A stretch of 64,000 nucleotides of DNA from a virus. Shown here in pieces: positions 8,898-61,702 of this stretch. Within the stretch, counting starts at the first letter, position 1, and the number at the start of each line of letters is the position of its first letter. The notes beneath the pieces are model-generated. The model worked only from the letters and a program-made list of their open reading frames with translations. It had not been told where the DNA came from and did not search any database. A program made the position numbers and the translations under genes. Where the stretch lies: positions 1 through 64,000 of the IMG/VR virus record IMGVR_UViG_3300045988_148900. One strand, 5' to 3'.

Positions 8898-8911
8898 GGA
8901 TATATAATTGC
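8898..8911 (-). promoter_or_regulatory. conserved 14-mer GCAATTATATATCC (candidate late promoter)
   Basis: Exact copy, 22 nt upstream of the ATG at 8875. Confidence 0.6.
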
Positions 8912-8914
8912 AAG

Positions 8915-11680
8915 CTACCAAGTAACACCTCGCTTGGCCTTCTCCTGCTCAAGCCATGAGTCTACAAAATACCAATCTCCAGAATCAATGTACTCCTGTG
9001 GGGGCGTGAAATCCTTAGGCCACAGCTTCCCCGTCTTCTTGTCAACAGCATGGATGTCGAGCTCGTAACCCCACGTAAGACCCACACAAGGCTCCGTAAC
9101 CAAAGGAACCTCAAAATTAGATGGCCAAAAGTTCATGATACGCTGCAAAACACATACCGCCTTAGCAAGATACTGAATGCGAGACGCAATCTGAATCTCA
9201 TCATGAACTGTAACCACAAAACGTGTATTGGCTGCGAACTCCGGGTCCATATCTCGATAACGCATAAGACGAATTAAATCCCGACGAATCAAGTCGCCAC
9301 CCGTATTTTTATGAACAAAACCACATAATGGATAAACAGGCAACCCACTACACATACTTGGTGACATGATATTATGAGTCACACCCAAAGGCATAGCAAA
9401 GACAGCATGAGCCTTCTGCTTCCGACCACGACATAACTTAAAGACATAATCCGTAGACGACGAAGCCGCAAAGTCATAGACCAAATTCCAACCAAAAAGA
9501 TCGCAGACCGAACGAAGGGTCGCTGCCGTGACAAAAGACCGCGTATGGAAACGTTTGCCCCCAAGAAATGACTTTAACAGACCCCAATAGATACCCCAGT
9601 CATCAACAGCAATAGGACGACCCATGTGAGCCAACGATGCAAGCTGCTCTAAACTAAAATTACCCCGACTAAAAAGACCCTTCAGAAGAGAAAAACGAGG
9701 CCGCTTAAAAGGCTTGCCCATGCGAACCGGAATACGACCACAAGAGTCCAAGTCTATGACGACATCGTCTGTCCCATACTTGACGAACTTGTGACCCCTA
9801 TTGCAAACCACAAAATCACCCGTATTGAAAATAACAACATGAAGCTCCTCCTCGCCACGAAATGTAGGAACACCCATACGACGCACACCTGACAAGGGAT
9901 CGACAAAGTCAACGCGCTGACCCGCAAAGTCCTTCCACGGACGATAACTCTTACCATCCTGAGATGGTAAATAAATTGTGTTAATTAAAGAGCCCTGTAT
10001 TGTACTATTTTTGGCCACACGCTCCGCATAAGCACGCATCCCATTATCAGGAGAACTAAACCATCGAGCTAAGTAAATAGTACGACCAAAGTAAGTCCGA
10101 GAAAACCCAGTTCGCTTAGCTGTTCGAACAACCTCATCCTGCCAAGCCTTCAACCGAGGCATACCTTTGTCGTAATCTGAAATGAGTTGGACAGCAGCCT
10201 GACGAGAAATGTTCAAACGCTGAGCAATCAAAGAAGCTCCACCACCATACAACTTGCCAAAAGAAACAGCCTTTGACTTAGAACGAAACGAAGGATCGGT
10301 TACACCAAAACGCTTATTGGCTACATACAAGTGAACATCTAACTTATGCTTAATCGGATACAAAAAACCATCCTCACGGGCCATATTCCCAGCCAGATTT
10401 AACTCCTCACTCGCATAATCGGCTCCTAAAACAGCCCAGCCATCTTCACCTGCAGGAGCAGGGAGGAATGCACTACGCATACCAGCTTTCGTCTTGTACT
10501 TAATGGGATTACCCGATGCATCACAAATCGCACCATCAGCCTCCTCAGTAAGACAATAACCCAAAACCGGATGAGTATGAAGATAAGCTTTAATCTCAAT
10601 TTTTGGCAAGTTTTGGCCGTTTAAGGGCTTATAGTAATCATTACCCTTAGAACCAGAGCTACTCATACGACCCGTCAAGGCAACCGTTAGATTGTAATTA
10701 ATGCGAACAGGAGTGCCACGCCAACTACACATCTTAGAGACAAAAGACTTAATGTAAGTGGAAACCTCCGAGTACTCAAGAAGCAACTTTGCCAATGGAT
10801 GATCAATAGTCGCAAGCACATTCTTATCTACCTTCAAACCTCCCCTCTCGGTGCGAACCGTAAGCGTCACAAAACGACCCAAAGCCTCGGCAATCTGAGG
10901 CCCGCTGTCAACGTTGAAGGAATAACCTACAAGCTGATAAATCTGCTGACGCAAAGACTCCATCTGAGCATTCGACCTCCGAAGCTCTGCATCCAAAAAG
11001 TCATAGTCCAAGTAAATCTCCTGCTGAGTCATCCGACGAACAGCCTCGCCACACTCGTTGTCCAACGAGTAAATCTTCCGAATGTTGGGATAATCGCTCC
11101 ATATCTTCAGACCAAGAAGAGCAGTTATGAGAGGATCACCCCCAGCATAAATAAAACTAACCTCCGGATCAGTAGAACCAAAGTCATTATTCTCAGCCTC
11201 ATTCTCCTCATAAGAAATAGTCTGGAACTTCAAGAAACGCTTCGCCCAGTCCTTCAACTTCGGCATACGGTCATTGAAAACCTCATGAGCCATGAACTGG
11301 ATGTCATGCGTCTTGCCTACAAATGGTGCCTTAAAGCCATCCTTCTCAAGCATCGAAAAGTCAAAGGACCTATTCCACCATGCAGTCATGTAGTTATCAA
11401 CAACAAACTGAACGAACTCCATAACCTCCTTAATGGGCAAGTTGCGAGAATAACCATAATGACGAAGCGGAATGTAATAACCTACATAATCCGCCTTGCT
11501 ATAGGTCCTACCTGTGGATAAGCAAATTCCAACAACATAATCGCTTACAAACGAGAGCCCTGTAGTTTCAGAGTCACAGCCGACCAAAATATTAGCATAA
11601 AGATTTGACCTTATAAAAGCCAAATCCTCAAGCGACTGAACGAGAGCAACCTTATAACCGTTAAAGGAACCCCAAAGCAT
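8915..11680 (-). CDS. family A DNA polymerase with 3'-5' exonuclease domain, interrupted by an intein-like insert
   Basis: Exo I VGCDSETTGL; motif A GADYASEELNLAG; motif B KAVSFGKLYGG; motif C VVTVHDEIQI. The QGTAAD-equivalent motif is split. Confidence 0.9.
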   Translation of the reverse strand: MLWGSFNGYKVALVQSLEDLAFIRSNLYANILVGCDSETTGLSFVSDYVVGICLSTGRTYSKADYVGYYIPLRHYGYSRNLPIKEVMEFVQFVVDNYMTAWWNRSFDFSMLEKDGFKAPFVGKTHDIQFMAHEVFNDRMPKLKDWAKRFLKFQTISYEENEAENNDFGSTDPEVSFIYAGGDPLITALLGLKIWSDYPNIRKIYSLDNECGEAVRRMTQQEIYLDYDFLDAELRRSNAQMESLRQQIYQLVGYSFNVDSGPQIAEALGRFVTLTVRTERGGLKVDKNVLATIDHPLAKLLLEYSEVSTYIKSFVSKMCSWRGTPVRINYNLTVALTGRMSSSGSKGNDYYKPLNGQNLPKIEIKAYLHTHPVLGYCLTEEADGAICDASGNPIKYKTKAGMRSAFLPAPAGEDGWAVLGADYASEELNLAGNMAREDGFLYPIKHKLDVHLYVANKRFGVTDPSFRSKSKAVSFGKLYGGGASLIAQRLNISRQAAVQLISDYDKGMPRLKAWQDEVVRTAKRTGFSRTYFGRTIYLARWFSSPDNGMRAYAERVAKNSTIQGSLINTIYLPSQDGKSYRPWKDFAGQRVDFVDPLSGVRRMGVPTFRGEEELHVVIFNTGDFVVCNRGHKFVKYGTDDVVIDLDSCGRIPVRMGKPFKRPRFSLLKGLFSRGNFSLEQLASLAHMGRPIAVDDWGIYWGLLKSFLGGKRFHTRSFVTAATLRSVCDLFGWNLVYDFAASSSTDYVFKLCRGRKQKAHAVFAMPLGVTHNIMSPSMCSGLPVYPLCGFVHKNTGGDLIRRDLIRLMRYRDMDPEFAANTRFVVTVHDEIQIASRIQYLAKAVCVLQRIMNFWPSNFEVPLVTEPCVGLTWGYELDIHAVDKKTGKLWPKDFTPPQEYIDSGDWYFVDSWLEQEKAKRGVTW
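9305..9991 (-). mobile_element. putative intein (229 codons, Ser564-Asn792 of the polymerase)
   Basis: The insert splits NSTIQG / TGGDLIRR. It starts SLINTIYL, contains CNRGH (block-B-like) and ends FVHKN, followed by Thr. Confidence 0.6.
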
Positions 11681-11685
11681 AACTA

Positions 11686-11844
11686 CTACCCCCGCTTCTT
11701 CTGATACGGAATCACCTCGCGAACAACACTCTTAGAAACAAGAGAAACCTTAAAAGGACGTGTGACAACAACGTAGCACATTTCAAGACTAAAAAAGATA
11801 TACACATCCTCAGTATGACCATCCACATGAACCAATGTTTTCAT
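11686..11844 (-). CDS. small hypothetical protein (52 aa), below the ORF-track size cutoff
   Basis: Hand translation gives MKTLVHVDGHTEDVYIFF...YQKKRG. Its TAG stop lies 5 nt before the polymerase ATG. Confidence 0.4.
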   Translation of the reverse strand: MKTLVHVDGHTEDVYIFFSLEMCYVVVTRPFKVSLVSKSVVREVIPYQKKRG

Positions 11845-11867
11845 TTAAAACTCGCTAATTTATACAA

Positions 11868-13106
11868 TTAACAAAATGAATTAATCGCAACTTTATCCGC
11901 ACATACACGGACTGGACAGCTCACATGCCCTCTATTGACTAAACATCGCAACGCAACGTCGTCGCCAAATACCTTCCGCAGAATGTTAACACTCCCGTTA
12001 ACGTCTGCATTTATTAACATCCCACTACCCGAACGAAACAAGCCTCGACGAATACGCTTGCCAACATAAGCGTCATGATGACATACAGCCTCGCGGTCTA
12101 AACTACTACAAACGGACGTGTGCGACTCATTGACACCAATGAACCCTATGCCCAAAACATTAGACTTATAACGAATCATCTCAACAAAACGACCATGTGG
12201 CAAACATACGAAATTCTGATTCGTAACGGAACCCAAATTAATACAATCCTTCCAACCCGGATTGTAACCCACAACTATCCTGTTAATACCATGATCCCTA
12301 CAATAATTTACTATTAAACGACTCGCCTTATGCAAGTAATCGTCAACCTTATTATTACGACGCAACGTAAGCCTAGCAAGACGGCGGGAATGCTTCTAAC
12401 CATGCTGCTTCTGTAAGCTACTCTGTAACTCACCACGCCGCTTATTATAATACTGATTTATAGACTTCAATGAACGACCATTGACTATAAAAGAAAAACC
12501 GTTGCTGTCATAGCAAGTCGCCAAGTTGTCAAGGCCCAAGTCGATAGATAAGTAACGACCGCTATCCGGTAACTCCACAACATCCGGAACCTTGTAAACA
12601 ACCTCGATGACGTAATAACCATGACGCGGTATAAAACGAACCTCATGGATACCTCCCGTAACACGCGTACGTAAAGGCGCAAAACCCTCCTTCTTGGGGA
12701 AGTGTAACATCCCGTCAACCAACCGAACCATCTGCGACGAGTAGACAAAGGAGAAGCGACCATTCGTCTTATCCTTGTAGTGCGGAAAACGAGGACATCC
12801 TGTGAACTTCTTATTATCGCGCTTCCATGCCTTGATCGACGAAAAGTAACCCTTCAAGTTCTGATCCAAACGGTGAAGAATATTATTCGACGACCATGCA
12901 CTCAACGCACGGTAATCTACATTGTTAGCCGACAAGAATTGCTTATTCAACTCAATCCAACGAATCCACTTGCCGCTACGCAAGAACTCCTGCTTAATGA
13001 CAAAAATACCCGCATTATACAAGTTCTTAGATAACCAGCATACATGGTCTATACGACCATAACGATGGTCGCCCCGTCGTACTATATGACGCTCTACTTG
13101 AACCAT
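11868..13106 (-). pseudogene. tnpB: IS200/IS605-family TnpB (OrfB) interrupted by one in-frame TAG at 12396-12398
   Basis: ORFs 12396-13106 and 11868-12365 are in the same frame. The sequence reads ...LQKQHG*KHSRRLARLTLRRNNK..., with SIDLGLDN, NESHTS and NADVNGSVNI motifs. Confidence 0.8.
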
Positions 13107-14172: not shown

Positions 14173-17100
14173 CTACGAAAGCATGATATAGATATCTGAC
14201 TTAGATCCACACTTAAAGCAAGACACCTTCTTATCTGCCGACAAGGATGCGTCAAAAGGAGTGGTAGATACAAGACAAGAGCCTGACGCACCCGAAAGAC
14301 CATCCAACTTAAACGAATCAGCTACCTTCTGAACGTCATCACATACCCAATAGCTATCTGATAACTTGCGCTTATAGATATCTGAGCAGTACAAATCCAA
14401 AGCATCCATAGCCAAAGCAGAATCCATGACCTTAGAAACCTTTGCCTTCGCAGCACGACTGCCTGACTTGCAGAGACTCTTATAAACACTCGGAGTAAGA
14501 CGCTCGCCAAGAACATCCGACGCTACACCAAGAACAGAGTCTAAGATACGCTTTGTGTTACGAATGCGACGAAAGGTGGACGCCGTATGAGGAATATCAA
14601 ACGTATTAGGTGCTCCATCCTGAACCCTATCAACATCAATCCCCACTACAACACTATCCTCTACAAGAATCTCCTTCTCCTCAAGGGCCTTCTTAATCTC
14701 ACTCTCTATAGAGTGAAGAACCTCCTGCTTGGCAGCGTCAGACAGAAGACTGTCATCATCCATCACCTCCTCCGGCCACGTGTTAAACAACGAATAGGTA
14801 ATCTTGCCATCCTTAATAAGCTGCTTCAACCGATCAAAAGCCTCGCGCTTATCCGAGAAACGAACAGCCTCAGAGCGATCCGACGTCTCACCGTCTTCAG
14901 ACATGTACTTCTTATCACGCCCAAAGGTATCCGCCATTGCTACGATAAACTTGCCATCCTCGTCGTCCTCGACTCGAACGTAACGAAAATCATCTCCTCC
15001 AGCCTGCACAGCATCCAAAGCACGCAACAAACCATCCTTCGACTCGAAGTCTACATAAGCCCCATCAACGCCCGTAGGAGCCGAATCCGAAACCTCCGGA
15101 AGGTCATAAATCTTGTGAGCCAACTGAACAGACGCGTCACTAAAGTCAGACGCAAACTTAGAAATGGCAGAATCCGACGTCTGATAGAAGAAAGCTACCG
15201 TGCCCACATAAGCCCCATCAGGACGTACATCTATAAAACGCTGATTCTTGCAAAGAACACGAGGAACAGACGGATCAAAACGAACCTCCATATGCAAAAC
15301 CTCAAGACCCGCAGACAAAAGCTCGCAAGCAGTCTGTAAATTAGCATCCGTAGGCTCCTGTGCGAGCTTGAAACTGTTATCTAATGCCCACTGCCGACAA
15401 GTGTCGCCAACAGCACCCCAGGCGACGACTTCAGGTGATCCTGTCTCAGAAACTCCCTGCTCCTCGACAATCTCCTCAGAAACAGAAGAAGAAACTTCAT
15501 CTCCAGCAGCATCCTCAATATGAACATCGCCAGAGACTACATCTGTGACTATCGCGCCAAGAGCCTCGCCGATCGCATCCGCAGACTCTGATATAGCCTC
15601 CTTAAATGCATCCAAATGAGACGACAGGTAACCTACTGCCTCTGATACAGGAACAATATCGGTACCATCCTCCGTGACAAACAGAACTGAACTGTCAGCT
15701 CCATAATCTGACCCATCATCATAGAAAATACCAACAGACGAATCTGAGTTGGAGATATCTACACCTGCCTGAACAGCGGAAAGAAGCTTATCAACATCAA
15801 AGTCTACAGCTGAGTCCGAAACATAAAATTTTTGCGGCGCAAAGTAATGAGCTAAATCAGAAGCCACTGTCCGCCAGTCGCCCTCATTATCCATGAGATT
15901 CAACCCTATATTACCCTCCATACGACGACCGACTCCCCTTAAAACATAGTGAACATTAGATTCACTATTAAAATCGGGACGGAGAACCAAAGTTCCTTCA
16001 TAAAACCTACCATCCGACTTAAGAACCGTAATATCGGTACTCTTAGTTGCGCCTCCTGAAACCTCCGGAAGAATAGACGCCAACGCCTCAATATTCTTAC
16101 GAATAACATCATCATACGTCGTGCTGTCAGAAGCACGGAAAACATCATCAAGGTCTACAAGAGTAAATACCTGAGGACCCAGCTTCTCCTTGATAAACTC
16201 CGTGACCTTGTCTACAAACAGAATGCCCTTCTCGTCATCACTCAAACCTCCCGTAGGAATCATCAAACCTCCGCAATCAACGATACCCTCAAATACATGA
16301 GCACTTATATTATTGGGATTACTACCGTCTACATGAAGCGAGAAGTCAGCCACAAGAGGAATGTCGAAAATATCATCAGCCTCATGACCTACACAACCAT
16401 CGCGTAAAATACCCCGAAGCTCCTGCTCGAAAGGCGTATTACCAATAGCATCCTCAATCTTCTCGTCATCATCCATCATAATGCTCTGCATATAACCCCC
16501 CTCCGGAGTAGACTCCTCTACAGTATTCTCCTCGACAGCAACCTCCGATTCCACAGAAGGACCATCTAAAGCAACAAGACTCCCGTCTGCCGGAAGAACA
16601 ACAACATCGGTAGAAGCAAAGGTATAATCAGCATCAGAACCCGTAAAAGCTCCGTTCTCGGCACGAACATTGAAATACTCAATAGGAAGACCCGAAACAA
16701 CAACCGAACCATCCCCTACGGAGGTAATAGTGCCTGCATACAAGTTACCCATATAAGACACCTGAACCGACGACCCAACCGGAAGCGGAAGACTCGGAAC
16801 AGAACAACTGTCTTTAACGCGCTTATTCGCAACTCTATGCTTAGGCGCAGCGTCAACCACAGACCTCGAAGATCGTTTATTCTCTGCATACTTCTTGGCA
16901 GAAGAGTCAACCACGGGACGATTAGAACGCTTATTAGGAACATGGACAGGAGCAGAATCACCTACCTCGACAGAAGTAGCCTCCTCGACAACATCGTCAT
17001 CATCCTGAGCAGGATCATCTTCTGACTCCACATCGGCCTCAATAGGCGGATTGTCTACAATCTCTTCAGAAGCCTCCTCGGCTCCTCCCGAAACCTGACC

Positions 17101-17847
17101 CGCAACAATATCTCCCAAACCATTCGTATACATAGCGGCAACCTCCGTGGCGAAATCCTGTGCCATGATAGCCGCCTGATCACTCAAAGCATCCAAAGCA
17201 TCTAATGCATCCCCGTAAAGCTCCTCGCCTGCAACAGACGCCTCCTCAACGACATCATTGAGAGCATCCTCCTGAGTAGCTCCACCCTCCAAGAAGGCCG
17301 CAACACGCTCATCATCCTGAACAAGACGGTAAGGACCCAACAAGGACTGAGCCTCCTGAGCCTCCACGGAATAACGATTCTCAACAAAGGCATTGTAGAA
17401 CCGCTTAACCTCCTCCGGCAACGACTCGTAACTCTTCTTAAGAAGAGCGTAACCCTTCGGATCCTCATTCGCAATAACTGCATTAATGGCCCAGCAAACC
17501 TCAGGAGTATACTCAATACAAGAATCCTGTACCCGAGCATGAATGGCCTTACACTCGGCAATCAAACGACGACGGGTACTACTATCCGTAGCCTCCAAGA
17601 AAGCCCGGCGAGGACCACGACGCTGCGAAAGCAAAGAACAAGAAAGCATATGAATCTCATCATCCGTGAACCCACGGCGTGACGAACTCCCCGCAGAATC
17701 CGAAACACTACGGCGTGAACCACGTGCAGAATCCTGCAAATACGAACCCACAGAGTCACCAACACGACGAACAGACGCACCCGACTCCGGAACCGTATCG
17801 GTAGACGAAGCTACCGCTACAATCTGCTGATAAAAACAATCTCCCAT
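14173..17847 (-). CDS. very large acidic protein (1224 aa), function unknown
   Basis: Long D/E/S/V-rich ORF with a short basic repeat (NKRSNRPVVDS / NKRSSRSVVDA / NKRVKDS). The 14-mer motif lies 57 nt upstream. Confidence 0.7.
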   Translation of the reverse strand: MGDCFYQQIVAVASSTDTVPESGASVRRVGDSVGSYLQDSARGSRRSVSDSAGSSSRRGFTDDEIHMLSCSLLSQRRGPRRAFLEATDSSTRRRLIAECKAIHARVQDSCIEYTPEVCWAINAVIANEDPKGYALLKKSYESLPEEVKRFYNAFVENRYSVEAQEAQSLLGPYRLVQDDERVAAFLEGGATQEDALNDVVEEASVAGEELYGDALDALDALSDQAAIMAQDFATEVAAMYTNGLGDIVAGQVSGGAEEASEEIVDNPPIEADVESEDDPAQDDDDVVEEATSVEVGDSAPVHVPNKRSNRPVVDSSAKKYAENKRSSRSVVDAAPKHRVANKRVKDSCSVPSLPLPVGSSVQVSYMGNLYAGTITSVGDGSVVVSGLPIEYFNVRAENGAFTGSDADYTFASTDVVVLPADGSLVALDGPSVESEVAVEENTVEESTPEGGYMQSIMMDDDEKIEDAIGNTPFEQELRGILRDGCVGHEADDIFDIPLVADFSLHVDGSNPNNISAHVFEGIVDCGGLMIPTGGLSDDEKGILFVDKVTEFIKEKLGPQVFTLVDLDDVFRASDSTTYDDVIRKNIEALASILPEVSGGATKSTDITVLKSDGRFYEGTLVLRPDFNSESNVHYVLRGVGRRMEGNIGLNLMDNEGDWRTVASDLAHYFAPQKFYVSDSAVDFDVDKLLSAVQAGVDISNSDSSVGIFYDDGSDYGADSSVLFVTEDGTDIVPVSEAVGYLSSHLDAFKEAISESADAIGEALGAIVTDVVSGDVHIEDAAGDEVSSSVSEEIVEEQGVSETGSPEVVAWGAVGDTCRQWALDNSFKLAQEPTDANLQTACELLSAGLEVLHMEVRFDPSVPRVLCKNQRFIDVRPDGAYVGTVAFFYQTSDSAISKFASDFSDASVQLAHKIYDLPEVSDSAPTGVDGAYVDFESKDGLLRALDAVQAGGDDFRYVRVEDDEDGKFIVAMADTFGRDKKYMSEDGETSDRSEAVRFSDKREAFDRLKQLIKDGKITYSLFNTWPEEVMDDDSLLSDAAKQEVLHSIESEIKKALEEKEILVEDSVVVGIDVDRVQDGAPNTFDIPHTASTFRRIRNTKRILDSVLGVASDVLGERLTPSVYKSLCKSGSRAAKAKVSKVMDSALAMDALDLYCSDIYKRKLSDSYWVCDDVQKVADSFKLDGLSGASGSCLVSTTPFDASLSADKKVSCFKCGSKSDIYIMLS

Positions 17848-17904
17848 GACTATAAATAATTAAGACACCCCAAGACGCCTAAAACATAAGCCCCTCAGGA
17901 TGTC

Positions 17905-17918
17905 GGATATATAATTGC
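17905..17918 (-). promoter_or_regulatory. conserved 14-mer GCAATTATATATCC
   Basis: Exact copy, 57 nt upstream of the ATG at 17847. Confidence 0.55.
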
Positions 17919-17933: not shown

Positions 17934-18383
17934 CTACTTATGGTGGCGAACCTTCCGGTTAGGAATGCAAGACAAGAAGCCCCAATAAGGAATCCGATGC
18001 TTCAAATAGTCCGGATCATCCTCGTGATTATAGGCCTCCGTCTCAAAACATGTGTAATAGTAAGCTCCCGGATAAGGAGGTATAAGAACCTCAATCAACC
18101 ACGACAACCCGTAGCATATCCAGAAGGCAAACAAAATACCCACAACAGACAACGCCCAAGCCCACCATGTGAAGCTATAATGAATCCCAAGAGGAATGAG
18201 AATAGCAGCAAAAAGAACTGAAAGCTCAAGCGAGTGTAAAGTATGCACAAGCTCATGCCTACGTGTACGAGCGGACATGTGGAAATTCTTGTGCTTCCGA
18301 GTAAAGCTGAAAATATGAAAAGTCAACCACCCGAACCCCTTAAAAGGAATGAACTTGTTGTGAACCTCAATTGGAATCTTCAT
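17934..18383 (-). CDS. membrane protein with an HExxH zincin-like motif
   Basis: HELVH is followed by several TM helices. The 14-mer motif lies 17 nt upstream. Confidence 0.45.
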   Translation of the reverse strand: MKIPIEVHNKFIPFKGFGWLTFHIFSFTRKHKNFHMSARTRRHELVHTLHSLELSVLFAAILIPLGIHYSFTWWAWALSVVGILFAFWICYGLSWLIEVLIPPYPGAYYYTCFETEAYNHEDDPDYLKHRIPYWGFLSCIPNRKVRHHK

Positions 18384-18400
18384 GGCACATACAATTTATT

Positions 18401-18414
18401 GGATATATAATTGC
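18401..18414 (-). promoter_or_regulatory. conserved 14-mer GCAATTATATATCC
   Basis: Exact copy, 17 nt upstream of the ATG at 18383. Confidence 0.6.
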
Positions 18415-20578: not shown

Positions 20579-20641
20579 GACTAATCCTTCGAAAAAAGCT
20601 TGCCGTAAAGGCAAAACATATCCATCACTTTAGACTTAATG

Positions 20642-20715
20642 CGGTGTGTAGGGGACTCGAACCCCTGACCCCGTGCGTGACAGGCACGTATTCTAACCTG
20701 CTGAACTAACACACC
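20642..20715 (-). tRNA. tRNA-Asp (GTC)
   Basis: A cloverleaf folds by hand: acceptor GGTGTGT/ACACACC, anticodon loop CTGTCAC, T arm AGGGG-TTCGAGT-CCCCT. Confidence 0.85.
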
Positions 20716-20740
20716 TGATAAACCCATAAACGTAGCAAGG

Positions 20741-20953
20741 CTACTTAGAACGCTTACGCTCCTTGCGACTCAAACGCCGACTACCAAACTCCTTCTTCTT
20801 AGGACGAACATGACCTACTGGACTCGTTTCGTTACCTCGACCCGTACATGTAGAACCATTGGAAATCCTCCGTGACGGAACACCATACAAATCAGAGTCC
20901 GACGCACACAGCGAACTCAAGGAAAGATATAAAGGAAGCAAACTCCTACCCAT
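20741..20953 (-). CDS. possible small basic protein
   Basis: ORF track only. The sequence is low-complexity and S/R/K-rich. Confidence 0.3.
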   Translation of the reverse strand: MGRSLLPLYLSLSSLCASDSDLYGVPSRRISNGSTCTGRGNETSPVGHVRPKKKEFGSRRLSRKERKRSK

Positions 20954-20964
20954 GACCACCTCGA

Positions 20965-21381
20965 TTAAAAACTACCCTCAAAACCATGACCTAACTCCAG
21001 AGACTCATCCACTACAAACTCAAAGTCTCCCGGAATGCCAAACTCCTCAACAATGAGAACCCGGAGAATATCAGCATAAGGCTCATACCAACTACCAACG
21101 TTCACTATGAACCTACCATCAGCAAAAGTTACTCGACCACGAGGAACATCCTTGAAATCCTGAGTATAAACAGAATTATTCCGATTCCGAGGGCTAAAGC
21201 GAGCCTTCTCCCACCAAAACTCATGCGTCTTAGTATAAAGCAACAGACCATTGATAACTCTATCTGGATCGAAGTCCTTCGTGTGAACCTCGAGCAAACT
21301 CTCAGAATCCTCATCAAACCAAAAGATACCAATCTTCGGTACCACAGATGTATCAGCGTCAAAAACTTGCATATCCTCCAT
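20965..21381 (-). CDS. hypothetical protein (138 aa)
   Basis: ORF track. It is the first gene after the promoter at 21395-21426. Confidence 0.6.
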   Translation of the reverse strand: MEDMQVFDADTSVVPKIGIFWFDEDSESLLEVHTKDFDPDRVINGLLLYTKTHEFWWEKARFSPRNRNNSVYTQDFKDVPRGRVTFADGRFIVNVGSWYEPYADILRVLIVEEFGIPGDFEFVVDESLELGHGFEGSF

Positions 21382-21394
21382 ATAACCAATGACG

Positions 21395-21426
21395 CAAAAA
21401 TAATATAATTAATTGTATAATCCAAA
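21395..21426 (-). promoter_or_regulatory. Bacteroidota-type promoter (TTTG-N20-TATTTTTG)
   Basis: Minus strand reads TTTGGATTATACAATTAATTATATTATTTTTG. Confidence 0.55.
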
Positions 21427-21429
21427 CGG

Positions 21430-21461
21430 AAAAAAAGAGACCATGATGCCTACATGGTCTC
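21430..21461 (-). terminator. intrinsic terminator closing the tRNA island
   Basis: Perfect 9-bp stem GAGACCATG/CATGGTCTC with a 7-nt loop, followed by T7 on the minus strand. Confidence 0.75.
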
Positions 21462-21485
21462 CTGTCAGCTCCTGTCAGCTCCTGA
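21461..21485. repeat. short tandem repeat (cctgtcagct x2.5)
   Basis: Read directly from the sequence. Confidence 0.6.
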
Positions 21486-21712
21486 TCTCTGAAGCCCGAT
21501 GATATCCATATATCGACTGGAACATCTTTAGCCGTTGATATTAACCTAAATCAATCAAAAATAGGAGCATACAACATGAGCATGCCAGTCGTCCTGCGTT
21601 TTTATAACCTCCATGCAGGGAATGGGCGGAGGGGCATAGCATTAAGACTCCAGCAGACTATAAGCAGTAAACGCAGAAAAATAAAACCCACTGAAACCTT
21701 AGAACAAAAAAG

Positions 21713-21797
21713 CGGAGAGTGAGAGATTCGAACTCCCGGTACCTTTCGGTACGCCTGATTAGTAGGCAGGTGCTTTAGACCACTCAGCCAACTCTCC
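21713..21797 (-). tRNA. type II tRNA-Ser with unusual anticodon ACT (A34)
   Basis: Paralogous to the tRNA-Ser at 22493-22577 (same acceptor GGAGAGT and a long variable arm). Anticodon loop is CTACTAA, with a C31:T39 mismatch. Confidence 0.65.
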
Positions 21798-22245
21798 AAA
21801 CCTTAAAAAAGAGGGGATGGGATACCCACTTATACTCTACCCCTCATAGAGTCTGTCGCCTCCGCTCCGGCACTCGCCTATGGAAAAAGTCCGTGTTGCT
21901 GCCTCGGAAACAATTTGTTTGGCCTCACGACCCAGTTGGCTGGTGTCTGGACTTATCCGTTAAGGAGCCAAACTCAGATCCCCCACAGCCGGGGATATGG
22001 TAAGTTGTAGGAGAGTTGGACGCTACTCATCTCCGTAGCATAATCCCATTACGAAAGCCGCTACAGCATTCTCACAATTAAACTACTACAACATGGGCAC
22101 CGGAGAGCCCGAAGACTCTAACGAGAACACCAACAAGCAATTCGTGCGCACTCTTTGACTCAAATGTCCCCTCTACCGGCATGTATCTCAAAGAACAAAG
22201 ATATAACTACCACTCTATGAAACCATATATCAATGACTTTATAAG
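21798..22245 (-). ncRNA. ORF-free block, candidate structured RNA (family unknown)
   Basis: No ORF of 60 aa or more on either strand. Local hairpins are present. Strand assumed from context. Confidence 0.3.
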
Positions 22246-22455
22246 TCAAAACACATCTTCTTTCTGCAACTCGCGCCAAAATTCTAAATCACAAGGAACG
22301 TGAGTATATCTCGGAAGACACTGAGTTCTAAAATCAGTATGATTATATACTTTGACCTCTAAAGGATTCGACGCTTTTTCATTAAGCACCTCATACTGTT
22401 TACACTCAAAAATAAACTTCTTTCCCGGCTTTATATTTGCAAGCTCAATATACAT
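22246..22455 (-). CDS. hypothetical protein (69 aa) embedded in the tRNA island
   Basis: ORF track. ATG start and ordinary amino-acid composition. Confidence 0.5.
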   Translation of the reverse strand: MYIELANIKPGKKFIFECKQYEVLNEKASNPLEVKVYNHTDFRTQCLPRYTHVPCDLEFWRELQKEDVF

Positions 22456-22492
22456 ATTAAAACATTTAATAAAAAGTTTAAGTACTTATCGG

Positions 22493-22577: not shown

Positions 22578-22633
22578 ATACATGTTATTACTTCTTGACA
22601 TACTCCCATGCGTAAACACACGGAATTCATGAC

Positions 22634-22860: not shown

Positions 22861-22879
22861 ATTTCTACGAATAGTTTCG

Positions 22880-26448: not shown

Positions 26449-26471
26449 AAACTAAAATGTTTTGGTTTGCA

Positions 26472-26485
26472 GGATATATAATTGC
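26472..26485 (-). promoter_or_regulatory. conserved 14-mer GCAATTATATATCC
   Basis: Exact copy. It overlaps the TAG stop of 26485-26874. Confidence 0.6.
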
Positions 26486-34867: not shown

Positions 34868-34883
34868 ACTCTACAAATTTTAT

Positions 34884-34897
34884 GGATATATAATTGC
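34884..34897 (-). promoter_or_regulatory. conserved 14-mer GCAATTATATATCC
   Basis: Exact copy, 16 nt upstream of the GTG at 34867. About 35 nt of context is shared with the 38197 copy. Confidence 0.6.
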
Positions 34898-38180: not shown

Positions 38181-38196
38181 GACTAAAACATTTTAT

Positions 38197-38413
38197 GGAT
38201 ATATAATTGCATAACCCCAAACAACACGCAAAAAACATAACCATAACAACAAAAAAACGGATATAGAATTGAGCAAAGCATGCTCTAAAGTAAAAATACC
38301 GGATATAGAATTGCTCCAAGCAACAACCTTGAACTCTATACAAACGCAAATTATAGGATATAGAATTGCTGAAAGTGACGACCAATCTACTAAAATAACG
38401 GATATAGAATTGC
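38197..38413 (-). repeat. array of five copies of the 14-mer motif (one consensus, four GCAATTCTATATCC-type variants)
   Basis: Copies at 38197-38210, 38259-38272, 38301-38314, 38356-38369 and 38400-38413. Successive starts are 62, 42, 55 and 44 nt apart. Confidence 0.8.
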
Positions 38414-38511: not shown

Positions 38512-38805
38512 AAGCAGAAGAACGAGCGACGAAATGCCAGAAGCTCCTACGCAAAAAGAAGAAGGCCCGGCCCAACAAGACACACCACCCCGGACCCCGG
38601 ATAACCCCCTAAAAGAAAAAGAACTCATCTAATAATAGATAAGCTCCTAAAATCTACCTTTTACGTATGATTTTAGACTACCAAAATGTAAATAAAATAA
38701 ACTATGACACCTAAAACGAACCTTTTGAACAAATAATCAAGAAAATCCCATTAGGAAAATCGCAGAATATAGGGAAATTTAGACCAATGAAATTATTTTA
38801 ATTGC

Positions 38806-49099: not shown

Positions 49100-49122
49100 A
49101 ATAAAAAACAATTTAATTTAAC

Positions 49123-49136
49123 GGATATATAATTGC
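49123..49136 (-). promoter_or_regulatory. conserved 14-mer GCAATTATATATCC
   Basis: Exact copy, 23 nt upstream of the sheath ATG. Confidence 0.6.
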
Positions 49137-50934: not shown

Positions 50935-51702
50935 CTAACCAACATAAGTCCTGCTCGTGCAGGGAGTAATATACATAACACCATCTGAGTCAAGTAAGCC
51001 ATTGAAACCTGCCGCCACGGACGCAGACGACCCACAAGGACGACCGCCAAAAGTGAAGCCTACAACCTCCCCGGACTCACCCCGAACGAATAAACGTGAC
51101 GCCTTATTCGGAACCGTGACAGACGACGTCGGAACAAACGGAACCCACGTCTTCTTATCCCAAGACATCTCAATAGGATAACCACCCCAGATAATCTGCA
51201 TAGCAACCTCCTTGCCCCAAGCATCCTCTAAAGAGACAGGAACAAAGTTGCTATGAAAAGACACAGAATAAATAGCAAGAGAGTCTATAAAATCCCTACG
51301 CTCAGGGTAAACCAAACACTCAATAACACCCTGAGAATCTCGATTTATAGGCTTCACGGCAGAAACAGAGTAGACAAGACCGTCAAGCAAAAACCGATCA
51401 TCAAGCATAGGAAGCCGAGGTAAACCTGTACACGACATGTAGATAACCCACGGAATAATATCGCCATCCTGAACCATAGCGTCGTCGCCAAAAGACTCCT
51501 GAACATAAAACATGTCCGGATTCTTCTTAACAATACACTGCTTCAAGACCCGAGCCTCCTCATGAGAGTGACCATCCTGATAAATGTCAAACTCAGTACA
51601 GTTGACTATAAAGATACAATCACGCCGAAGCGGATGCCGGGAAATCCGAACATCCGCCATCTTAGCAGTATATTGCTCTAAAGCACTAAGTCGAGCGTCC
51701 AT
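50935..51702 (-). CDS. neck / head-tail joining candidate (255 aa)
   Basis: The 14-mer motif lies 19 nt upstream. Function inferred from position only. Confidence 0.4.
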   Translation of the reverse strand: MDARLSALEQYTAKMADVRISRHPLRRDCIFIVNCTEFDIYQDGHSHEEARVLKQCIVKKNPDMFYVQESFGDDAMVQDGDIIPWVIYMSCTGLPRLPMLDDRFLLDGLVYSVSAVKPINRDSQGVIECLVYPERRDFIDSLAIYSVSFHSNFVPVSLEDAWGKEVAMQIIWGGYPIEMSWDKKTWVPFVPTSSVTVPNKASRLFVRGESGEVVGFTFGGRPCGSSASVAAGFNGLLDSDGVMYITPCTSRTYVG

Positions 51703-51721
51703 GCACAGATCCGAATTTCTT

Positions 51722-51735
51722 GGATATATAATTGC
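51722..51735 (-). promoter_or_regulatory. conserved 14-mer GCAATTATATATCC
   Basis: Exact copy, 19 nt upstream of the ATG at 51702. Confidence 0.6.
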
Positions 51736-54154: not shown

Positions 54155-54186
54155 CAAAGGTAGGAAAATTAATTTTATTCTCCAAA
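54155..54186 (-). promoter_or_regulatory. Bacteroidota-type promoter, within an exact 55-nt repeat (54137-54191 = 1-55)
   Basis: TTTG-N20-TACCTTTG. Confidence 0.55.
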
Positions 54187-55871: not shown

Positions 55872-57161
55872 CTACTCACAAGAAGCGTATCTAAAAGTAT
55901 AACCTTTTACTGACTGTATCTTACCTGTACAACAGCATACAATAGAAGTGCGATTAATTCCCAATACCGATCCAGCCTCTGCAGAAGACTTAAACTGTGA
56001 AGTAACTCCATCTACAAGACGAGTGGAAATAACCGACTTCCGTCTCTTCGCGCCACAGTCAAAATAATCTGCAGGCAACTCTGACAAAGAAGGAGCTTTA
56101 GCATCATCAGGATACCTGAAAATATACCCCTTACCCTGCTTATAACGACCCAAACAACAACCCGTAATATGAGAAGAACGAACTCCGGTTGCCTTACTTG
56201 CCTCAGACAAAGACGAAAAAACAACAGAGACTCCTGAAGCAATATTTATCGCCTCTACTGATCGCACGCGTGCAGCACAAGCTACCGTGCGCAAAACGTT
56301 GGAATTATTAGCATACGGATCATAACACAATCGCCGGGCAACCTCGTCTAAATCCATAGAACGCAAAAAAATAAACCCGTACACCTTCGGCGGATTACCA
56401 TCCACAGCATCCAAAATGCGAGAAACACGATTCTGAATATCCAACTCCTTAACCAAAACATGTACATTAGGCCAAGACTTAACGAAAGAGCCATCCTTGG
56501 CTGAAAACCCAAATATTTCAAAATCTGAGTCCTTCCGCTTAGGACGCTTATAAACCTTATTCTGAACATCAGAAAGAACCAACAAAGCATCATCAGGACT
56601 ATCTTTATACAGAAATAGATAACCACATACAGATAAAAGCTTCCGCTGACAGCATAACGTAATAGACGCAGAAGCAACACCCAACTTCTCGGATGCTGCC
56701 TTAGCTCCATAAAACTCTCCAACAAACTCTCCAGTAGAAACCCGATAGCAAACCACAGGACGACTCTTGCGACGACGCGTCTCCCCCGACGCACGACGAT
56801 TATGAAGCATTGCTATAACATGATCAGGCTGCTTAAATCCGCTACAACCATCACCTCCCTTAGTGGAATTATAACCATGAAGATATGTATCATAAAAGGC
56901 AATCCAATAAATCTCTCGCTCATTTAACCCTTTACTACGAGCTTCTATGGAGTCATAAGATAACCTCTCTAAAATCTCATAATCAAAAGACTCGGGGCCA
57001 TACTTCCGACGCGCATTATCAATAGCACTCCTACCACTCGTATAAGTGGTACCTATTGACAAAAACTGACTATGACGTTCTTCCCCATCACCTATAGCCT
57101 GACCAACATAAGACCTCCCAGAAACCTTACAGGTGTACTTATAAATTATACCCTCAAACAT
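55872..57161 (-). CDS. free-standing GIY-YIG homing endonuclease with four C-terminal repeated DNA-binding modules
   Basis: GIIYKYTCKVSGRSYVGQA...REIYWIAFYDTYLHGYNSTKGGDG, then four modules ending GYLFLY / (diverged) / GYIFRY / GYTFRY. Confidence 0.85.
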   Translation of the reverse strand: MFEGIIYKYTCKVSGRSYVGQAIGDGEERHSQFLSIGTTYTSGRSAIDNARRKYGPESFDYEILERLSYDSIEARSKGLNEREIYWIAFYDTYLHGYNSTKGGDGCSGFKQPDHVIAMLHNRRASGETRRRKSRPVVCYRVSTGEFVGEFYGAKAASEKLGVASASITLCCQRKLLSVCGYLFLYKDSPDDALLVLSDVQNKVYKRPKRKDSDFEIFGFSAKDGSFVKSWPNVHVLVKELDIQNRVSRILDAVDGNPPKVYGFIFLRSMDLDEVARRLCYDPYANNSNVLRTVACAARVRSVEAINIASGVSVVFSSLSEASKATGVRSSHITGCCLGRYKQGKGYIFRYPDDAKAPSLSELPADYFDCGAKRRKSVISTRLVDGVTSQFKSSAEAGSVLGINRTSIVCCCTGKIQSVKGYTFRYASCE

Positions 57162-57179
57162 AATACTTTAATTATGGCA

Positions 57180-57210
57180 CAAATATAGTAAAATGTTTGT
57201 GTAATTCAAA
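57180..57210 (-). promoter_or_regulatory. Bacteroidota-type promoter (TTTG-N19-TATATTTG) for the homing endonuclease
   Basis: Minus strand reads TTTGAATTACACAAACATTTTACTATATTTG. It lies 18 nt upstream of the ATG. Confidence 0.55.
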
Positions 57211-57274: not shown

Positions 57275-58780
57275 CTATACGTAACGAACGGTCAATTTCG
57301 AAATGCAATTGGCCTTGTGCAGCTTATAAGCTTCCATGCTTACCATCGACTGGCGAACGGTAACACCAATAGCTACCTGATCCGTCGGAACCAAAGGTAA
57401 GAAGATACCCATGTACATGACGGCGTCGTACCATTCAGGACCTCGATAGGTCATCATGACAGCATCGTCAGCCCTCCAAGGATCGTAATAGACCTTAAAC
57501 GAACCAAACTGACCGATCTCACGAGCTGCTGACCACTGAGCCTGATAGCGCACAGGCTGGAACCACGTGTTGGGCAGTGACTCAAGGAACGACTTCATGT
57601 TCTTGCCTACAACCAGACGGTTGCCCTCGATACGGCCTGACGCCAGCTCGATCTGCGTAGCATACTGCTTCAGCTGCTGCATCACATTAGCTGCCTGTAC
57701 GTCAAGAGAGATCGACGTCGACTGGGGAATGTTGATCGTTCCGGTAGCTCCGGTAGCGAACGTCCACATGGTGTCGAGAATGTAACGAACCTGATACTGA
57801 TACATGAGGTTCAGTACGCGCTTCGTGTTCTCGGTGCGGATGTCGGTGCCGAACTGCGACTTCTTGAGAGCCTCAGCAAAGATGGTCCACTCCATGCCGA
57901 TAGCACGCGGAATGGCACGCATCTCGACCTTCTCGACCTGCTCCTTGACCTTCGGAATGTTCTCCTGAATGGCGTAGTCGAGGTTCCAAACGTAGTTGGC
58001 GTTGATGCACGGAGCCGTCAGAGCACCACCTGCGTCTGCAGCAGCGATGAAGATACCACCCGAGCTAATCAGCATGTACGACGCCGGAGCCTGAGTGGGT
58101 GCCGAAGCCGGAACAAGGTTGATCTTGTCGCCTATAACGCCTGCGGGAATCATCGAAGCCTTCAGCTCCTGACCGTCGTAGATGTCCAGCTTGAACTTGT
58201 CGATGTAGTCGCCCGAAACGTTCAAAGCGAAGTAAGCTGTAACAGCCGTGATGTTGTTAGAAGCGTCAACCTCCAGCTGATCCGACGGAATGGTCTCGCC
58301 GAGAATCTCACCAGTCGGGTAGTAACCATTGATCTGACGCATACCCGTAGCGGTCTCAACGGCCTGACCTACAATCGTGGGAGCCTTGTTCGTGCCAGTA
58401 ACGAGTTTCGAGAAGAACAGGAAGGCAAGGTCCTGCGACATGTCCTGAACCGAAATCAGGTCCTTCAGTGGGAAGTCGGGATACCAAGCAGCAACGATGG
58501 GGAATACCTCCGGAACGTAGGGACCGAAGTCACTCATCATGTTGACCTGCTGACCACGAGTGGCGGGAGCGTCAATCGAGTCGCAAACCTTCTCGCACTC
58601 ACGCTTGAAGGTGTTCAGAATACCTGCCTGAATGCCACGATCTTTAACCGAAAGGGCCATGCCATGCTTCTTGGCAAAGGCATCATACCGATTCATGTAT
58701 TCGGTAATACGCTTGCTCTTACGAGTGAGGGCGATACTGTCAGTAACGCGACTCATCTCCTGTGAAATAATATCAGTCAT
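57275..58780 (-). CDS. major capsid protein (T4 gp23-like)
   Basis: Segments ...MRAIPRAIGMEWTIFAEALKKSQFGTD...ILDTM and ...YYDPW...MTYRGPEWYDAVMYMGIFLPLVP parallel gp23. It follows the gp21-like protease. Confidence 0.8.
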   Translation of the reverse strand: MTDIISQEMSRVTDSIALTRKSKRITEYMNRYDAFAKKHGMALSVKDRGIQAGILNTFKRECEKVCDSIDAPATRGQQVNMMSDFGPYVPEVFPIVAAWYPDFPLKDLISVQDMSQDLAFLFFSKLVTGTNKAPTIVGQAVETATGMRQINGYYPTGEILGETIPSDQLEVDASNNITAVTAYFALNVSGDYIDKFKLDIYDGQELKASMIPAGVIGDKINLVPASAPTQAPASYMLISSGGIFIAAADAGGALTAPCINANYVWNLDYAIQENIPKVKEQVEKVEMRAIPRAIGMEWTIFAEALKKSQFGTDIRTENTKRVLNLMYQYQVRYILDTMWTFATGATGTINIPQSTSISLDVQAANVMQQLKQYATQIELASGRIEGNRLVVGKNMKSFLESLPNTWFQPVRYQAQWSAAREIGQFGSFKVYYDPWRADDAVMMTYRGPEWYDAVMYMGIFLPLVPTDQVAIGVTVRQSMVSMEAYKLHKANCISKLTVRYV

Positions 58781-58818: not shown

Positions 58819-59526
58819 CTAACGAACTCCAAGACTCCGACTAACACGGTCCTTCAGCCGCTCTAAGTCCGAAATAACCTTGCTAATGTCCGCCAATAAA
58901 TGATCGGGATTATAAGCATCGTCTACAGAATCTCGTAACTGATACATCTGCACAGCTTCTCTGAACAGCGGGGACGCCATAAGAGAATCCGAAACTTTCT
59001 CCAACCGAATATCCTCAAAGTTGGGCGACCGAACAAGATCCCATGTAATAACATAGTAGTTGTTCTCATCCAAGTACTCCGAAATGGAGTCCTCCAGATA
59101 GTCACCCAAAGCACGAGTGCTACAACCCGGACGGAAGCCTACGTCGACAAGAGCCTTGATAGCACAACCATCCTCGTTATTAAGCAACCCGCAGTCAATG
59201 TATGGATCATGTGAGGAATCATCAACCCACGCACGCAGCACAATATGCGACGCCTTATTCAAAGGAGTACGCATGTACTCAGAATCATCAAGTGGATGCT
59301 CAATCATCCCAAGCATATCACGACCCTCAACTCGCTGCTGAAGCTGAGAATCGTTCACCACCTTATCCCAAAAACCCTTACGATACCGATAACCCTTCTG
59401 ACTCCGAACGTCACTATGGGACGCCGCACCACGAATAATAGGAATCTTCACTCCCGTGGTGGGATCCTCCTTCGAGTCGACAACCCGGAAAGAACTGCGG
59501 TACGTAGATAAAACTTTGTTAAGCAT
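58819..59526 (-). CDS. prohead core protease (T4 gp21-like)
   Basis: LGMIEHP (His) and GFRPGCSTRALG (Ser) align with gp21 LGELNHP and GWIPGVSSRGLG. Confidence 0.8.
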   Translation of the reverse strand: MLNKVLSTYRSSFRVVDSKEDPTTGVKIPIIRGAASHSDVRSQKGYRYRKGFWDKVVNDSQLQQRVEGRDMLGMIEHPLDDSEYMRTPLNKASHIVLRAWVDDSSHDPYIDCGLLNNEDGCAIKALVDVGFRPGCSTRALGDYLEDSISEYLDENNYYVITWDLVRSPNFEDIRLEKVSDSLMASPLFREAVQMYQLRDSVDDAYNPDHLLADISKVISDLERLKDRVSRSLGVR

Positions 59527-59543
59527 CTCTGAAAAAGTTTAAG

Positions 59544-59557
59544 GGATATATAATTGC
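59544..59557 (-). promoter_or_regulatory. conserved 14-mer GCAATTATATATCC
   Basis: Exact copy, 17 nt upstream of the protease ATG. Confidence 0.6.
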
Positions 59558-60811: not shown

Positions 60812-60832
60812 AAAAAACAATTTTAATTTTAC

Positions 60833-60846
60833 GGATATATAATTGC
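60833..60846 (-). promoter_or_regulatory. conserved 14-mer GCAATTATATATCC
   Basis: Exact copy, 21 nt upstream of the ATG at 60811. Confidence 0.6.
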
Positions 60847-60857
60847 TACAGGCACGC

Positions 60858-60887
60858 AAAAAAAGAAGAGCCTACAAGACTCTTCTT
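60858..60887 (-). terminator. intrinsic terminator
   Basis: 8-bp stem AAGAAGAG/CTCTTCTT, followed by T7 on the minus strand (the first two Ts overlap the stem). Confidence 0.65.
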
Positions 60888-60907
60888 AAACAAACAAGAA
60901 CCATAAA

Positions 60908-61669
60908 CTACTTCCACCGACCAATAGCAAGCCACATGAAGGTATTACCTGAATTGCCGTACTCCGACTGAGCATTAGACAACCTCTTAATATAACGAGG
61001 CTTCATGGTAAAATAAGTAGTGTCAACAACAGCTGCGCTAGCTGACTCTACTGCAGAATCTCCAAAACCAGTAGACGTCGTATAAATACAATATGGAGTA
61101 GTATAAAAAGCCGTAGCGTAATATACCGAAAGTGACAAAACCTGACTTCCTAACGAACCCCAACAAAACATCATACCGTCAGGTGCCTTATAATAACCAG
61201 AAGGACCAAAACCCTTCGTTAAAGTAACATTACTCAGAGTGGTATTAGCGCAAGAGGTAAAAGAAAAAGATGTCCCTCTTCTAATTCTGTCTAAAATCTG
61301 ACTGTCCGTACCAGAGGCTAAACTGGCTTGAGTATCTGTAAAAGTGTTGCAGTAAGCAACTTTGGTTTTTGCCTCGTAAACAAAACCACTATTACTACCG
61401 GAACTATTATTAGCCCAAGCAACCCCAAAATAAGGCGCGTTATGAATAAAACGAACACTCCCCGTATGAATGAGACCAAAAAGACGAGAAATAAGATCGG
61501 TGATATTCTGATCCGAATCTAAAAAAGAAGACCAACCCTCCCCCTCACCAAGAGAAGAAGCCTGCATCGTCAAAGGAGCCTTCGCAGATACAGACTGCTC
61601 TAAAGGAGTCACCTTAGACAAAAGATCATCAATCTGAGGACCTGTATATGAGCTAACATAATCCGCCAT
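60908..61669 (-). CDS. virion protein, possibly fibre-like (253 aa)
   Basis: The 14-mer variant lies 19 nt upstream. The C-terminal ...FMWLAIGRWK is reminiscent of phage fibre C-terminal domains; weak. Confidence 0.4.
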   Translation of the reverse strand: MADYVSSYTGPQIDDLLSKVTPLEQSVSAKAPLTMQASSLGEGEGWSSFLDSDQNITDLISRLFGLIHTGSVRFIHNAPYFGVAWANNSSGSNSGFVYEAKTKVAYCNTFTDTQASLASGTDSQILDRIRRGTSFSFTSCANTTLSNVTLTKGFGPSGYYKAPDGMMFCWGSLGSQVLSLSVYYATAFYTTPYCIYTTSTGFGDSAVESASAAVVDTTYFTMKPRYIKRLSNAQSEYGNSGNTFMWLAIGRWK

Positions 61670-61688
61670 AACACATAAATAGTTTTAC

Positions 61689-61702
61689 GGATATATAATT
61701 AC
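61689..61702 (-). promoter_or_regulatory. variant 14-mer GTAATTATATATCC abutting the 3' flank of the tnpB element
   Basis: One mismatch (C to T at motif position 2). Confidence 0.5.

Follow-up and report, generated by a model that had tools for sequence, protein, structure and literature searches.

A conserved 14-mer upstream of virion genes as a candidate late promoter, and a sigma-like protein, in an uncultured T4-related phage family of the human gut

The DNA considered here, called the window throughout, is a 64,000-nucleotide (nt) stretch of viral sequence from IMG/VR (record IMGVR_UViG_3300045988_148900, positions 1 to 64,000), in which copies of a 14-mer, GCAATTATATATCC, lie upstream of 11 genes. 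A first-pass annotation of the sequence had counted eleven copies on the coding strand, ten of them exact and one with a single mismatch, and had proposed them as a phage-specific, perhaps late, promoter; a motif search reproduced the coordinates, and all 11 distances from the end of the motif to the start codon were recovered exactly (Table 1). With up to two mismatches allowed, the window holds 15 matches against 0.44 expected, and shuffled sequences never gave more than three. All copies are found on the minus strand, as is every credible gene of the window, and independent gene calls on the source contig place all of them between genes; only genes that stand first in an operon carry the motif. 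The earlier inventory was incomplete in that it overlooked four variant copies at 38259-38413 and a continuation of the conserved block on its downstream side, nnnAAA(T/C), which follows 10 of the 11 copies.

Where a function can be assigned, the genes downstream of the motif belong to the virion or to lysis, and just outside the window the motif also precedes portal- and terminase-like genes. Among the labels that the first-pass annotation had given to these genes, those of the prohead protease (PHROG 207), of the major capsid protein encoded next to it (57275-58780; PHROG 138 and Pfam Gp23) and of the head-fibre-like product of the 281-aa gene (PF25641, Head_fiber_dimeric) are supported. Weaker support was obtained for a holin (the 113-aa product; PHROG 1299, E 0.002), for a baseplate protein (the 103-aa product, whose gene is followed by genes of 912, 682 and 189 aa; PHROG 975, E 3e-4) and for a tail sheath (the 604-aa product; hhalign against T4 gp18, E 0.0046 over 60 residues of the conserved sheath segment), while the labels 'neck operon', 'acidic' and 'membrane' could not be confirmed. 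The sheath-like gene heads a run of genes that ends with a tail protein carrying a Peptidase_M23 domain (38806-40431), and it is preceded by four genes of unknown function, the first of which is the 255-aa gene, without a match in PHROG or Pfam. The 253-aa product has a weak Gp53-like_C match, the 149-aa product matches PHROG 15610 ('protease'), and the 230-aa gene lies directly after the DNA polymerase gene (8915-11680, DNA_pol_A). No family or PDB match was found for the 1224-aa product, and PHROG, Pfam and PDB sequence searches returned nothing for most of the tail genes, nor for the genes of 1224, 912, 793 and 682 aa; a comparison of the tube-like protein with T4 gp19 (hhalign) was not significant.

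Table 1. Motif copies, variant copies and host-type promoter sites in the window, with the genes that follow the motif copies. The lower-case and upper-case letters in the first column are the seven bases downstream of the 14-mer.
Feature	Position	Strand	14-mer at	Predicted +1	Distance to start codon (nt)	Start codon at	Downstream gene or context
One-mismatch copy (GTAATT...), GTAATTATATATCCgtaAAAC	61682..61702	-	61689	61685	19	61669	253-aa gene 60908-61669
Exact copy + gtaAAAT	60826..60846	-	60833	60829	21	60811	281-aa head-fibre-like gene
Exact copy + cttAAAC	59537..59557	-	59544	59540	17	59526	prohead protease gene 58819-59526
Exact copy + aagAAAT	51715..51735	-	51722	51718	19	51702	255-aa gene 50935-51702
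Exact copy + gttAAAT	49116..49136	-	49123	49119	23	49099	604-aa sheath-like gene 47285-49099
Exact copy + ataAAAT	38190..38210	-	38197	38193	16	38180	308-aa gene 37254-38180
Exact copy + ataAAAT	34877..34897	-	34884	34880	16	34867	103-aa gene 34556-34867 (GTG start)
Exact copy + tgcAAAC	26465..26485	-	26472	26468	23	26448	113-aa holin-like gene 26107-26448
Exact copy + aatAAAT	18394..18414	-	18401	18397	17	18383	149-aa gene 17934-18383
Exact 14-mer without AAA block (gacATCC)	17898..17918	-	17905		57	17847	1224-aa gene 14173-17847
Exact copy + ggaAAAT	8891..8911	-	8898	8894	22	8875	230-aa gene 8183-8875
Four variant copies (three GCAATTCTATATCC, one TCAATTCTATATCC)	38259..38413	-	38259, 38301, 38356, 38400				upstream of exact copy 38197
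Terminator-like hairpin, 13 pairs	38619..38648	-					after M23 peptidase gene
Copies of the 32-mer TTTGGAnAATAAAATTAATnTTnnTAnCTTTG	19-50, 24505-24536, 25048-25079, 27438-27469, 54155-54186	-					
Looser host-type copies (these among others)	7054-7084, 21395-21426, 57180-57210	-					

The motif lacks dyad symmetry and is strictly oriented. In a frequency matrix built from 113 non-redundant sites, information is confined to positions -1 to +20 of the block, apart from a weak G-richness at -8 to -6; nothing is seen farther upstream, and no block resembling a -35 element is present. Since an AAA pattern was used to gather the loci, the AAA columns of this matrix carry some bias, which does not extend to the window copies. 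Hairpins resembling intrinsic terminators stand directly upstream of some copies, in the window at 60863-60887, ahead of the copy that precedes the 281-aa gene, and also in the relative L140. The motif regions share no common RNA fold (mean z -0.29, with variable pairing) and have no match in Rfam; a scan of the genome for sigma-70-type promoters yielded hits at chance level, and a literature search on the 14-mer found no paper.

Two proteins of the window were located on scaffold_155 of the metagenomic ENA assembly ERZ28616900 (134,587 bp), of which the window represents bases 32297-96296 in reverse complement. The closest GenBank phage record is MT839083, from human faeces; a megablast of 20 kb against the INPHARED phages gave no match, and the nearest isolates are distant T4-related phages with 24-28% identity, to which may be added a weak Portal_T4 match of the portal protein. 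IMG/VR contains two clades of relatives, clade A with approximately 91% nucleotide identity to the window and contigs of up to 142 kb, and clade B with approximately 67% nucleotide identity and a capsid protein that is 69% identical, as well as a more distant contig, L010. When IMG/VR was scanned for the motif followed by AAA, 92 stretches were returned, 81 of which fall in 12 contigs of this phage family, on one strand per contig; the coding strand of near-complete relatives has 12-18 exact copies and the opposite strand has none. Motif copies precede orthologous genes in clades A and B: counterparts in clade B exist for the sites at 60826, 59537, 49116, 38190, 34877 and 18394, and that at 49116 is also present in L010. 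When clades A and B are compared at nine orthologous sites, anchored on the motif itself, identity reaches 100% over the 14-mer and 71% over the 7 nt that follow it (+14 to +20), against 39% in the leader and 30% in the 40 nt upstream, a pattern which indicates that the motif is under strong selection.

Beyond these two clades the motif changes at its edges. In L010 it takes the form G(C/G/T)TTATATATT(A/T)nnnAAA, also written GCTTATATATTA for this clade, before the orthologues of the protease gene, the sheath-like gene and others; in L140 it reads TCAGTTATATATCCgttAAAT, behind a terminator, and in L111 GCAATTATATATC. The flanks thus vary between clades (GCAA..CC, TCAG..CC, GC-TTATATAT-TA), and the core is kept. 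Since distant clades retain the core and its spacing and change the flanks, the deeply conserved element appears to be TTATATAT-N5-AAA.

Late promoters of T4 consist of TATAAATA at -13 to -6 (PMC1524935). The spacing TTATATAT-N5-A fits this geometry. With TTATATAT aligned to the T4 octamer, +1 falls on the first A of the AAA block and -11 on the A at position 7 of the motif; in promoters of the sigma-70 family, -11 is the base normally captured by sigma region 2. Transcription is thus predicted to start at the first A of the AAA block and would give leaders of approximately 13-20 nt.

The first-pass annotation recognised no gp55- or gp33-like factor in the window and pointed to the rest of the genome as the place to look for one. 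It was right on the window, since no gene there carries a sigma or RNA polymerase family, and on the same scaffold, 7.4 kb beyond the high end of the window, there is indeed a gene for a 186-aa protein with a Pfam Sigma70_r2 domain (35 bits, against a gathering score of 24). Orthologues are encoded in both of the motif-bearing clades A and B, the two clades that a profile scan of IMG/VR for such loci reached. Searched with a profile, 1.84 billion representative sequences yielded 81 relatives, most of them of about 175-200 aa; in 60 that were aligned, Sigma70_r2 was detected in 29 and region 4 (Sigma70_r4) in none, and their PHROG matches are weak, a few to 'RNA polymerase sigma factor' and one of the 60 to 'late sigma transcription factor' (PHROG 234). 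An AlphaFold2 model made with the 60-sequence alignment has a mean predicted local distance difference test score (pLDDT) of 90.4, compared to 41.6 with three sequences. Its best fold matches in the PDB are sigmaE region 2 on a -10 element and the Pribnow-box domain of SigC (probability 1.0, target template-modelling score 0.60-0.66, E 0.04-0.3), and its best viral matches (BFVD) are phage sigma factors, including annotated late sigma factors and a Gp55 (E 0.03-0.1); also matched is the sigma factor of Stenotrophomonas phage Moby, the capsid of which is among the nearest to that of the present phage. We are confident, on the strength of this model, that the 186-aa protein adopts a sigma-region-2 fold.

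The surroundings of the sigma-like gene are conserved, comprising, in order, a clamp-loader gene, small open reading frames (ORFs), the sigma-like gene, a gene for a protein of 241 or 266 aa, a copy of the motif, a ferritin-like gene and then a terminase-like gene; the block from clamp loader to ferritin-like gene is kept in distant relatives, and in relatives the sigma-like gene follows the clamp loader (DNA_pol3_delta2) at a distance of 1.6 kb. Directly before the sigma-like gene there is a host-type promoter, of the class described below, in L111, and in the window's own genome a TnpB element (L105:1-1059, outside the window). The 241-266-aa protein is always encoded next after the sigma-like gene (L105:1893-2693, in the same genome; L111:9481-10206; L140:10573-11298); it has no family match and is a candidate partner of the sigma, either co-activator or regulator. 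A 108-aa ORF before the sigma-like gene was considered as a gp33 and rejected, as it overlaps the 3' flank of TnpB and its sequence is shared with the flank of another TnpB copy. The literature on late sigma factors of Bacteroides phages yielded nothing relevant.

A second class of promoters accompanies the 14-mer. The Bacteroidota consensus combines TTTG at -33 with TAnnTTTG at -7 (PMC6847099), and the pattern TTTG-N17-22-TAnnTTTG has 15 occurrences in the window where 3 are expected, and every one is on the coding strand; the 32-mer TTTGGAnAATAAAATTAATnTTnnTAnCTTTG, its AT-rich spacer included, is present in five copies against 0 expected. None of the 11 copies of the 14-mer fits this pattern, which bears out the earlier separation of the motif from TTTG/TAnnTTTG promoters. 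The host-type sites precede small genes, at least one tRNA gene (tRNA-Leu) and a homing-endonuclease gene, and do not stand at the heads of virion modules; mRNAs without a leader, or nearly so, would arise from some of them, such as that at 27438, which is 5 nt before a GTG start, and promoters of the same type recur in the distant relatives L111, L140 and L141. A Shine-Dalgarno-like 4-mer precedes 6 of 49 genes with an ATG start, and an A-rich peak is found at -14 to -12 before start codons. From the host-type promoters, the near absence of Shine-Dalgarno sequences and a weak match to the BACON domain in a relative (an 874-aa protein, L021:4132-6753, below the Pfam cut-off), we infer that the host is probably a member of the Bacteroidota. 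A search of bacterial genomes for relatives of the phage's TnpB, intended to assign a host, found none.

We consider GCAATTATATATCC-nnn-AAAT most likely to be a late, or middle-to-late, promoter read by the phage's own sigma-like protein, and give this reading a probability of roughly 0.65; the first-pass proposal of a phage-specific promoter of the T4 late type is favoured by every sequence-level test that was run. Under this reading, a host-type Bacteroidota promoter would express the 186-aa protein earlier in infection, and the protein, which has a region 2 and no recognisable region 4 and resembles gp55 in this respect, would redirect the host core polymerase. The -10-type element would be the TTATATAT core, occupying -13 to -6, and its -11 base the A at motif position 7; initiation at the first A of the AAA block would produce the short leaders and lead to transcription of the virion genes, lysis genes and a few others.

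Such a switch is of a known kind, although here the promoter is longer, its sequence is different and the sigma lies outside the recognisable gp55 family. The late system of T4 likewise has an A/T-rich octamer, no -35 element and the same spacing to a conserved A, and it too serves virion genes, which in the present phage include capsid genes of T4 type; the phage also encodes, beside a clamp-loader gene, a sigma-like protein of about 185 aa in which region 2 alone is recognised. The two differ in that the core is TTATATAT rather than TATAAATA, in that six further flanking bases (GCAA, CC) are invariant here, in addition to AAAT, in that the sigma-like protein is not detectably a member of the gp55 sequence family (no PHROG 234 match), in that T4 gp55 works with gp33 and the gp45 sliding clamp whereas no homologue of either is recognised here, and in that the probable host is a Bacteroidota with its own -33/-7 promoters. 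Aeromonas phage Aeh1 has a divergent late promoter, CTAAATA, together with a diverged gp55 (PMC1524935). Promoter and late sigma thus diverge together there, much as the flanks shift and the core stays between the clades examined here, but the present family is much farther from T4 and its conserved block is longer. Promoters of the Bacteroidota primary sigma form a separate class in this genome, and the 14-mer of clades A and B differs from them in lacking both the -7 TTTG and a fixed -33 element. The promoters of T7, T3 and SP6 are also near-invariant blocks of approximately 20 bp that include the start site and give short leaders; their sequences, however, are unrelated, and the phage has a sigma-like gene where no polymerase gene was found. 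Finally, in sequence and in fold the region 2 of the phage protein is closest to that of extracytoplasmic function (ECF, group 4) sigma factors, which need region 4 and a -35 element; here there is no -35 block, and none of the 60 family members matches Sigma70_r4.

The four variant copies of the motif, spaced by 42-62 nt, precede the exact copy at 38197 within a non-coding module of about 600 nt that comprises the terminator-like hairpin behind the M23 peptidase gene, a G-rich tract and the variant array, and ends at that exact copy. In all four the predicted -11 position has C in place of A and the AAA block is missing; their flanks are otherwise intact, save that the copy at 38259 begins with T instead of G. 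Relatives in clade A have a second module of 5-6 variant copies at another locus, with the same hairpin and with no exact copy after it (L124:11100-11700, L122 and L123; in relative 143886, too, the second array is headed by this hairpin sequence). In clade B a single variant copy is found at this second locus (contig 099149, near 13562), behind a terminator and a G/T-rich tract, and before the 306-aa gene of that clade there is an exact copy only. Because both clades show the identical substitution and its flanks are intact, the variant copies look like an element under selection and less like decayed promoters. The array, whose units are unequal in length, escaped Tandem Repeats Finder, and Rfam has no match there. 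As a speculation to which we attach little probability, the sigma-like protein and the 14-mer may form a self-contained and highly specific switch acting on Bacteroidota RNA polymerase, in which the -11 variants bind the same factor without productive opening; if this were true, the variants could be a decoy or timer for late transcription, or a transcription-activated element resembling an origin.

A number of observations weigh against the reading of the 14-mer as a late promoter used by the sigma-like protein. Sigma and motif are linked through co-occurrence only. The structural matches have weak Foldseek E-values (0.008-0.1), and the hhalign comparison with T4 gp55, although colinear (E 0.0027, probability 11%), does not establish homology with gp55; nor did Pfam and PHROG recognise a sliding clamp or a gp33-like co-activator. 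Three motif copies sit in the replication region, so that the class may not be strictly 'late', and in relative 143886 an exact copy (L113:11322, 124 nt before a NUMOD homing-endonuclease gene) has the orientation of the sigma-like gene and lies 4.1 kb upstream of it; unless a terminator stands between the two, the sigma of this relative would be autoregulated from its own promoter type instead of belonging to a simple cascade. The reading does not account for the A-to-C arrays. To our knowledge, 14 invariant bases exceed any promoter of a region-2-only sigma (8 bp in T4), and such invariance is more typical of promoters of single-subunit RNA polymerases. Furthermore, Pfam, PHROG and PDB gave no match for several large ORFs of the family (878, 949, 956, 1224 and 912 aa), and relative 143886 was read to 87% coverage, the remaining gaps being window-equivalent sequence except for 4.4 kb. 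The last of these points bear on the main rival, namely that the 14-mer is the promoter of an unrecognised phage RNA polymerase, whether single-subunit and T7-like, divergent and multisubunit, or of the crAss/YonO kind, for which the near-invariant block of about 21 bp, with the likely start site inside it, would be in keeping with T7-type promoters. No RNA_pol family is found in Pfam on any window gene, however, nor on the large ORFs of the near-complete relative 143886; the only D-x-D-x-D in a large ORF of the window (DFDVD, in the 1224-aa protein) is not accompanied by an RNA polymerase family match, every clade examined has a sigma-like gene in a syntenic position, and core and spacing fit the -10 geometry of sigma factors, so we hold a phage polymerase to be rather improbable.

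Unlikely as well, and to our minds slightly more so, is the idea that the 14-mer is the target of a phage activator or repressor acting together with the primary sigma holoenzyme of the host, in the manner of a MotA box or an operator. Its length and invariance surpass those of a typical -10 element, the A-to-C arrays keep their flanks as protein-binding sites would, and the 241/266-aa protein that always follows the sigma-like gene could be considered for such a role; yet in clades A and B there is neither a TAnnTTTG at a fixed distance nor a -33 TTTG at fixed spacing, and the motif, asymmetric and strictly oriented, sits where a -10 element and start site are expected rather than upstream of a core promoter. 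The 14-mer might instead act in RNA, as a processing site or as a translation-initiation signal in a read-through leader, given that it lies near start codons; because the genome does not use Shine-Dalgarno sequences, another initiation signal could exist. This we regard as very unlikely, since the motif stands at variable distances from the start codon (13-26 nt in the family, and once 57) but at a constant one from AAA, is restricted to genes that open an operon and has terminators directly before some copies, and since the regions have neither a common RNA fold nor an Rfam match. A promoter used by the phage sigma-like protein remains our preferred reading.

Other features of the window and its relatives deserve mention. 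The coding (minus) strand is G+T-rich throughout the window, the plus strand having a GC skew of approximately -0.22 and an AT skew of approximately +0.25. The region 20641-25026, where ORFs are few, contains six tRNA genes on the coding strand, for Asp, Ser(ACT), Ser(TGA), Met, Leu(CAA) and Leu(TAA), of which the Ser tRNA with anticodon ACT is unusual. TnpB (IS605 OrfB / Cas12f1-like) is represented in the window by an intact copy at 61780-62958, a copy split into two ORFs at 11868-13106, beside the DNA polymerase gene, and a small fragment at 22634-22840 among the tRNA genes; since relatives carry copies at other positions, the element is active within the phage family. The GIY-YIG / NUMOD homing-endonuclease gene mentioned above occupies 55872-57161, directly after the major capsid gene, with its own host-type promoter at 57155-57210, and a similar NUMOD gene is found just outside the window (L105:8588-9829). 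Relatives encode a protein resembling Tad3, an inhibitor of Thoeris (L124:14231-14986), and a clamp-loader gene that is interrupted by an intein (L140:4163-6373).

We know of no description of late transcription for T4-related phages in a Bacteroidota host, and Bacteroidota are unlike E. coli in their RNA polymerase and promoters. A short sigma that has a cognate promoter of 14-20 bp would be a candidate orthogonal expression part for the engineering of Bacteroides, and the motif is so specific that it can serve to recognise members of the family in metagenomes, as the share of IMG/VR matches inside the family (81/92) indicates. For this uncultured family of human-gut phages, with genomes of approximately 130-140 kb, the reading favoured here gives a testable expression programme in three steps, in which host-type early promoters would supply a phage sigma and this in turn would activate a very specific late promoter.

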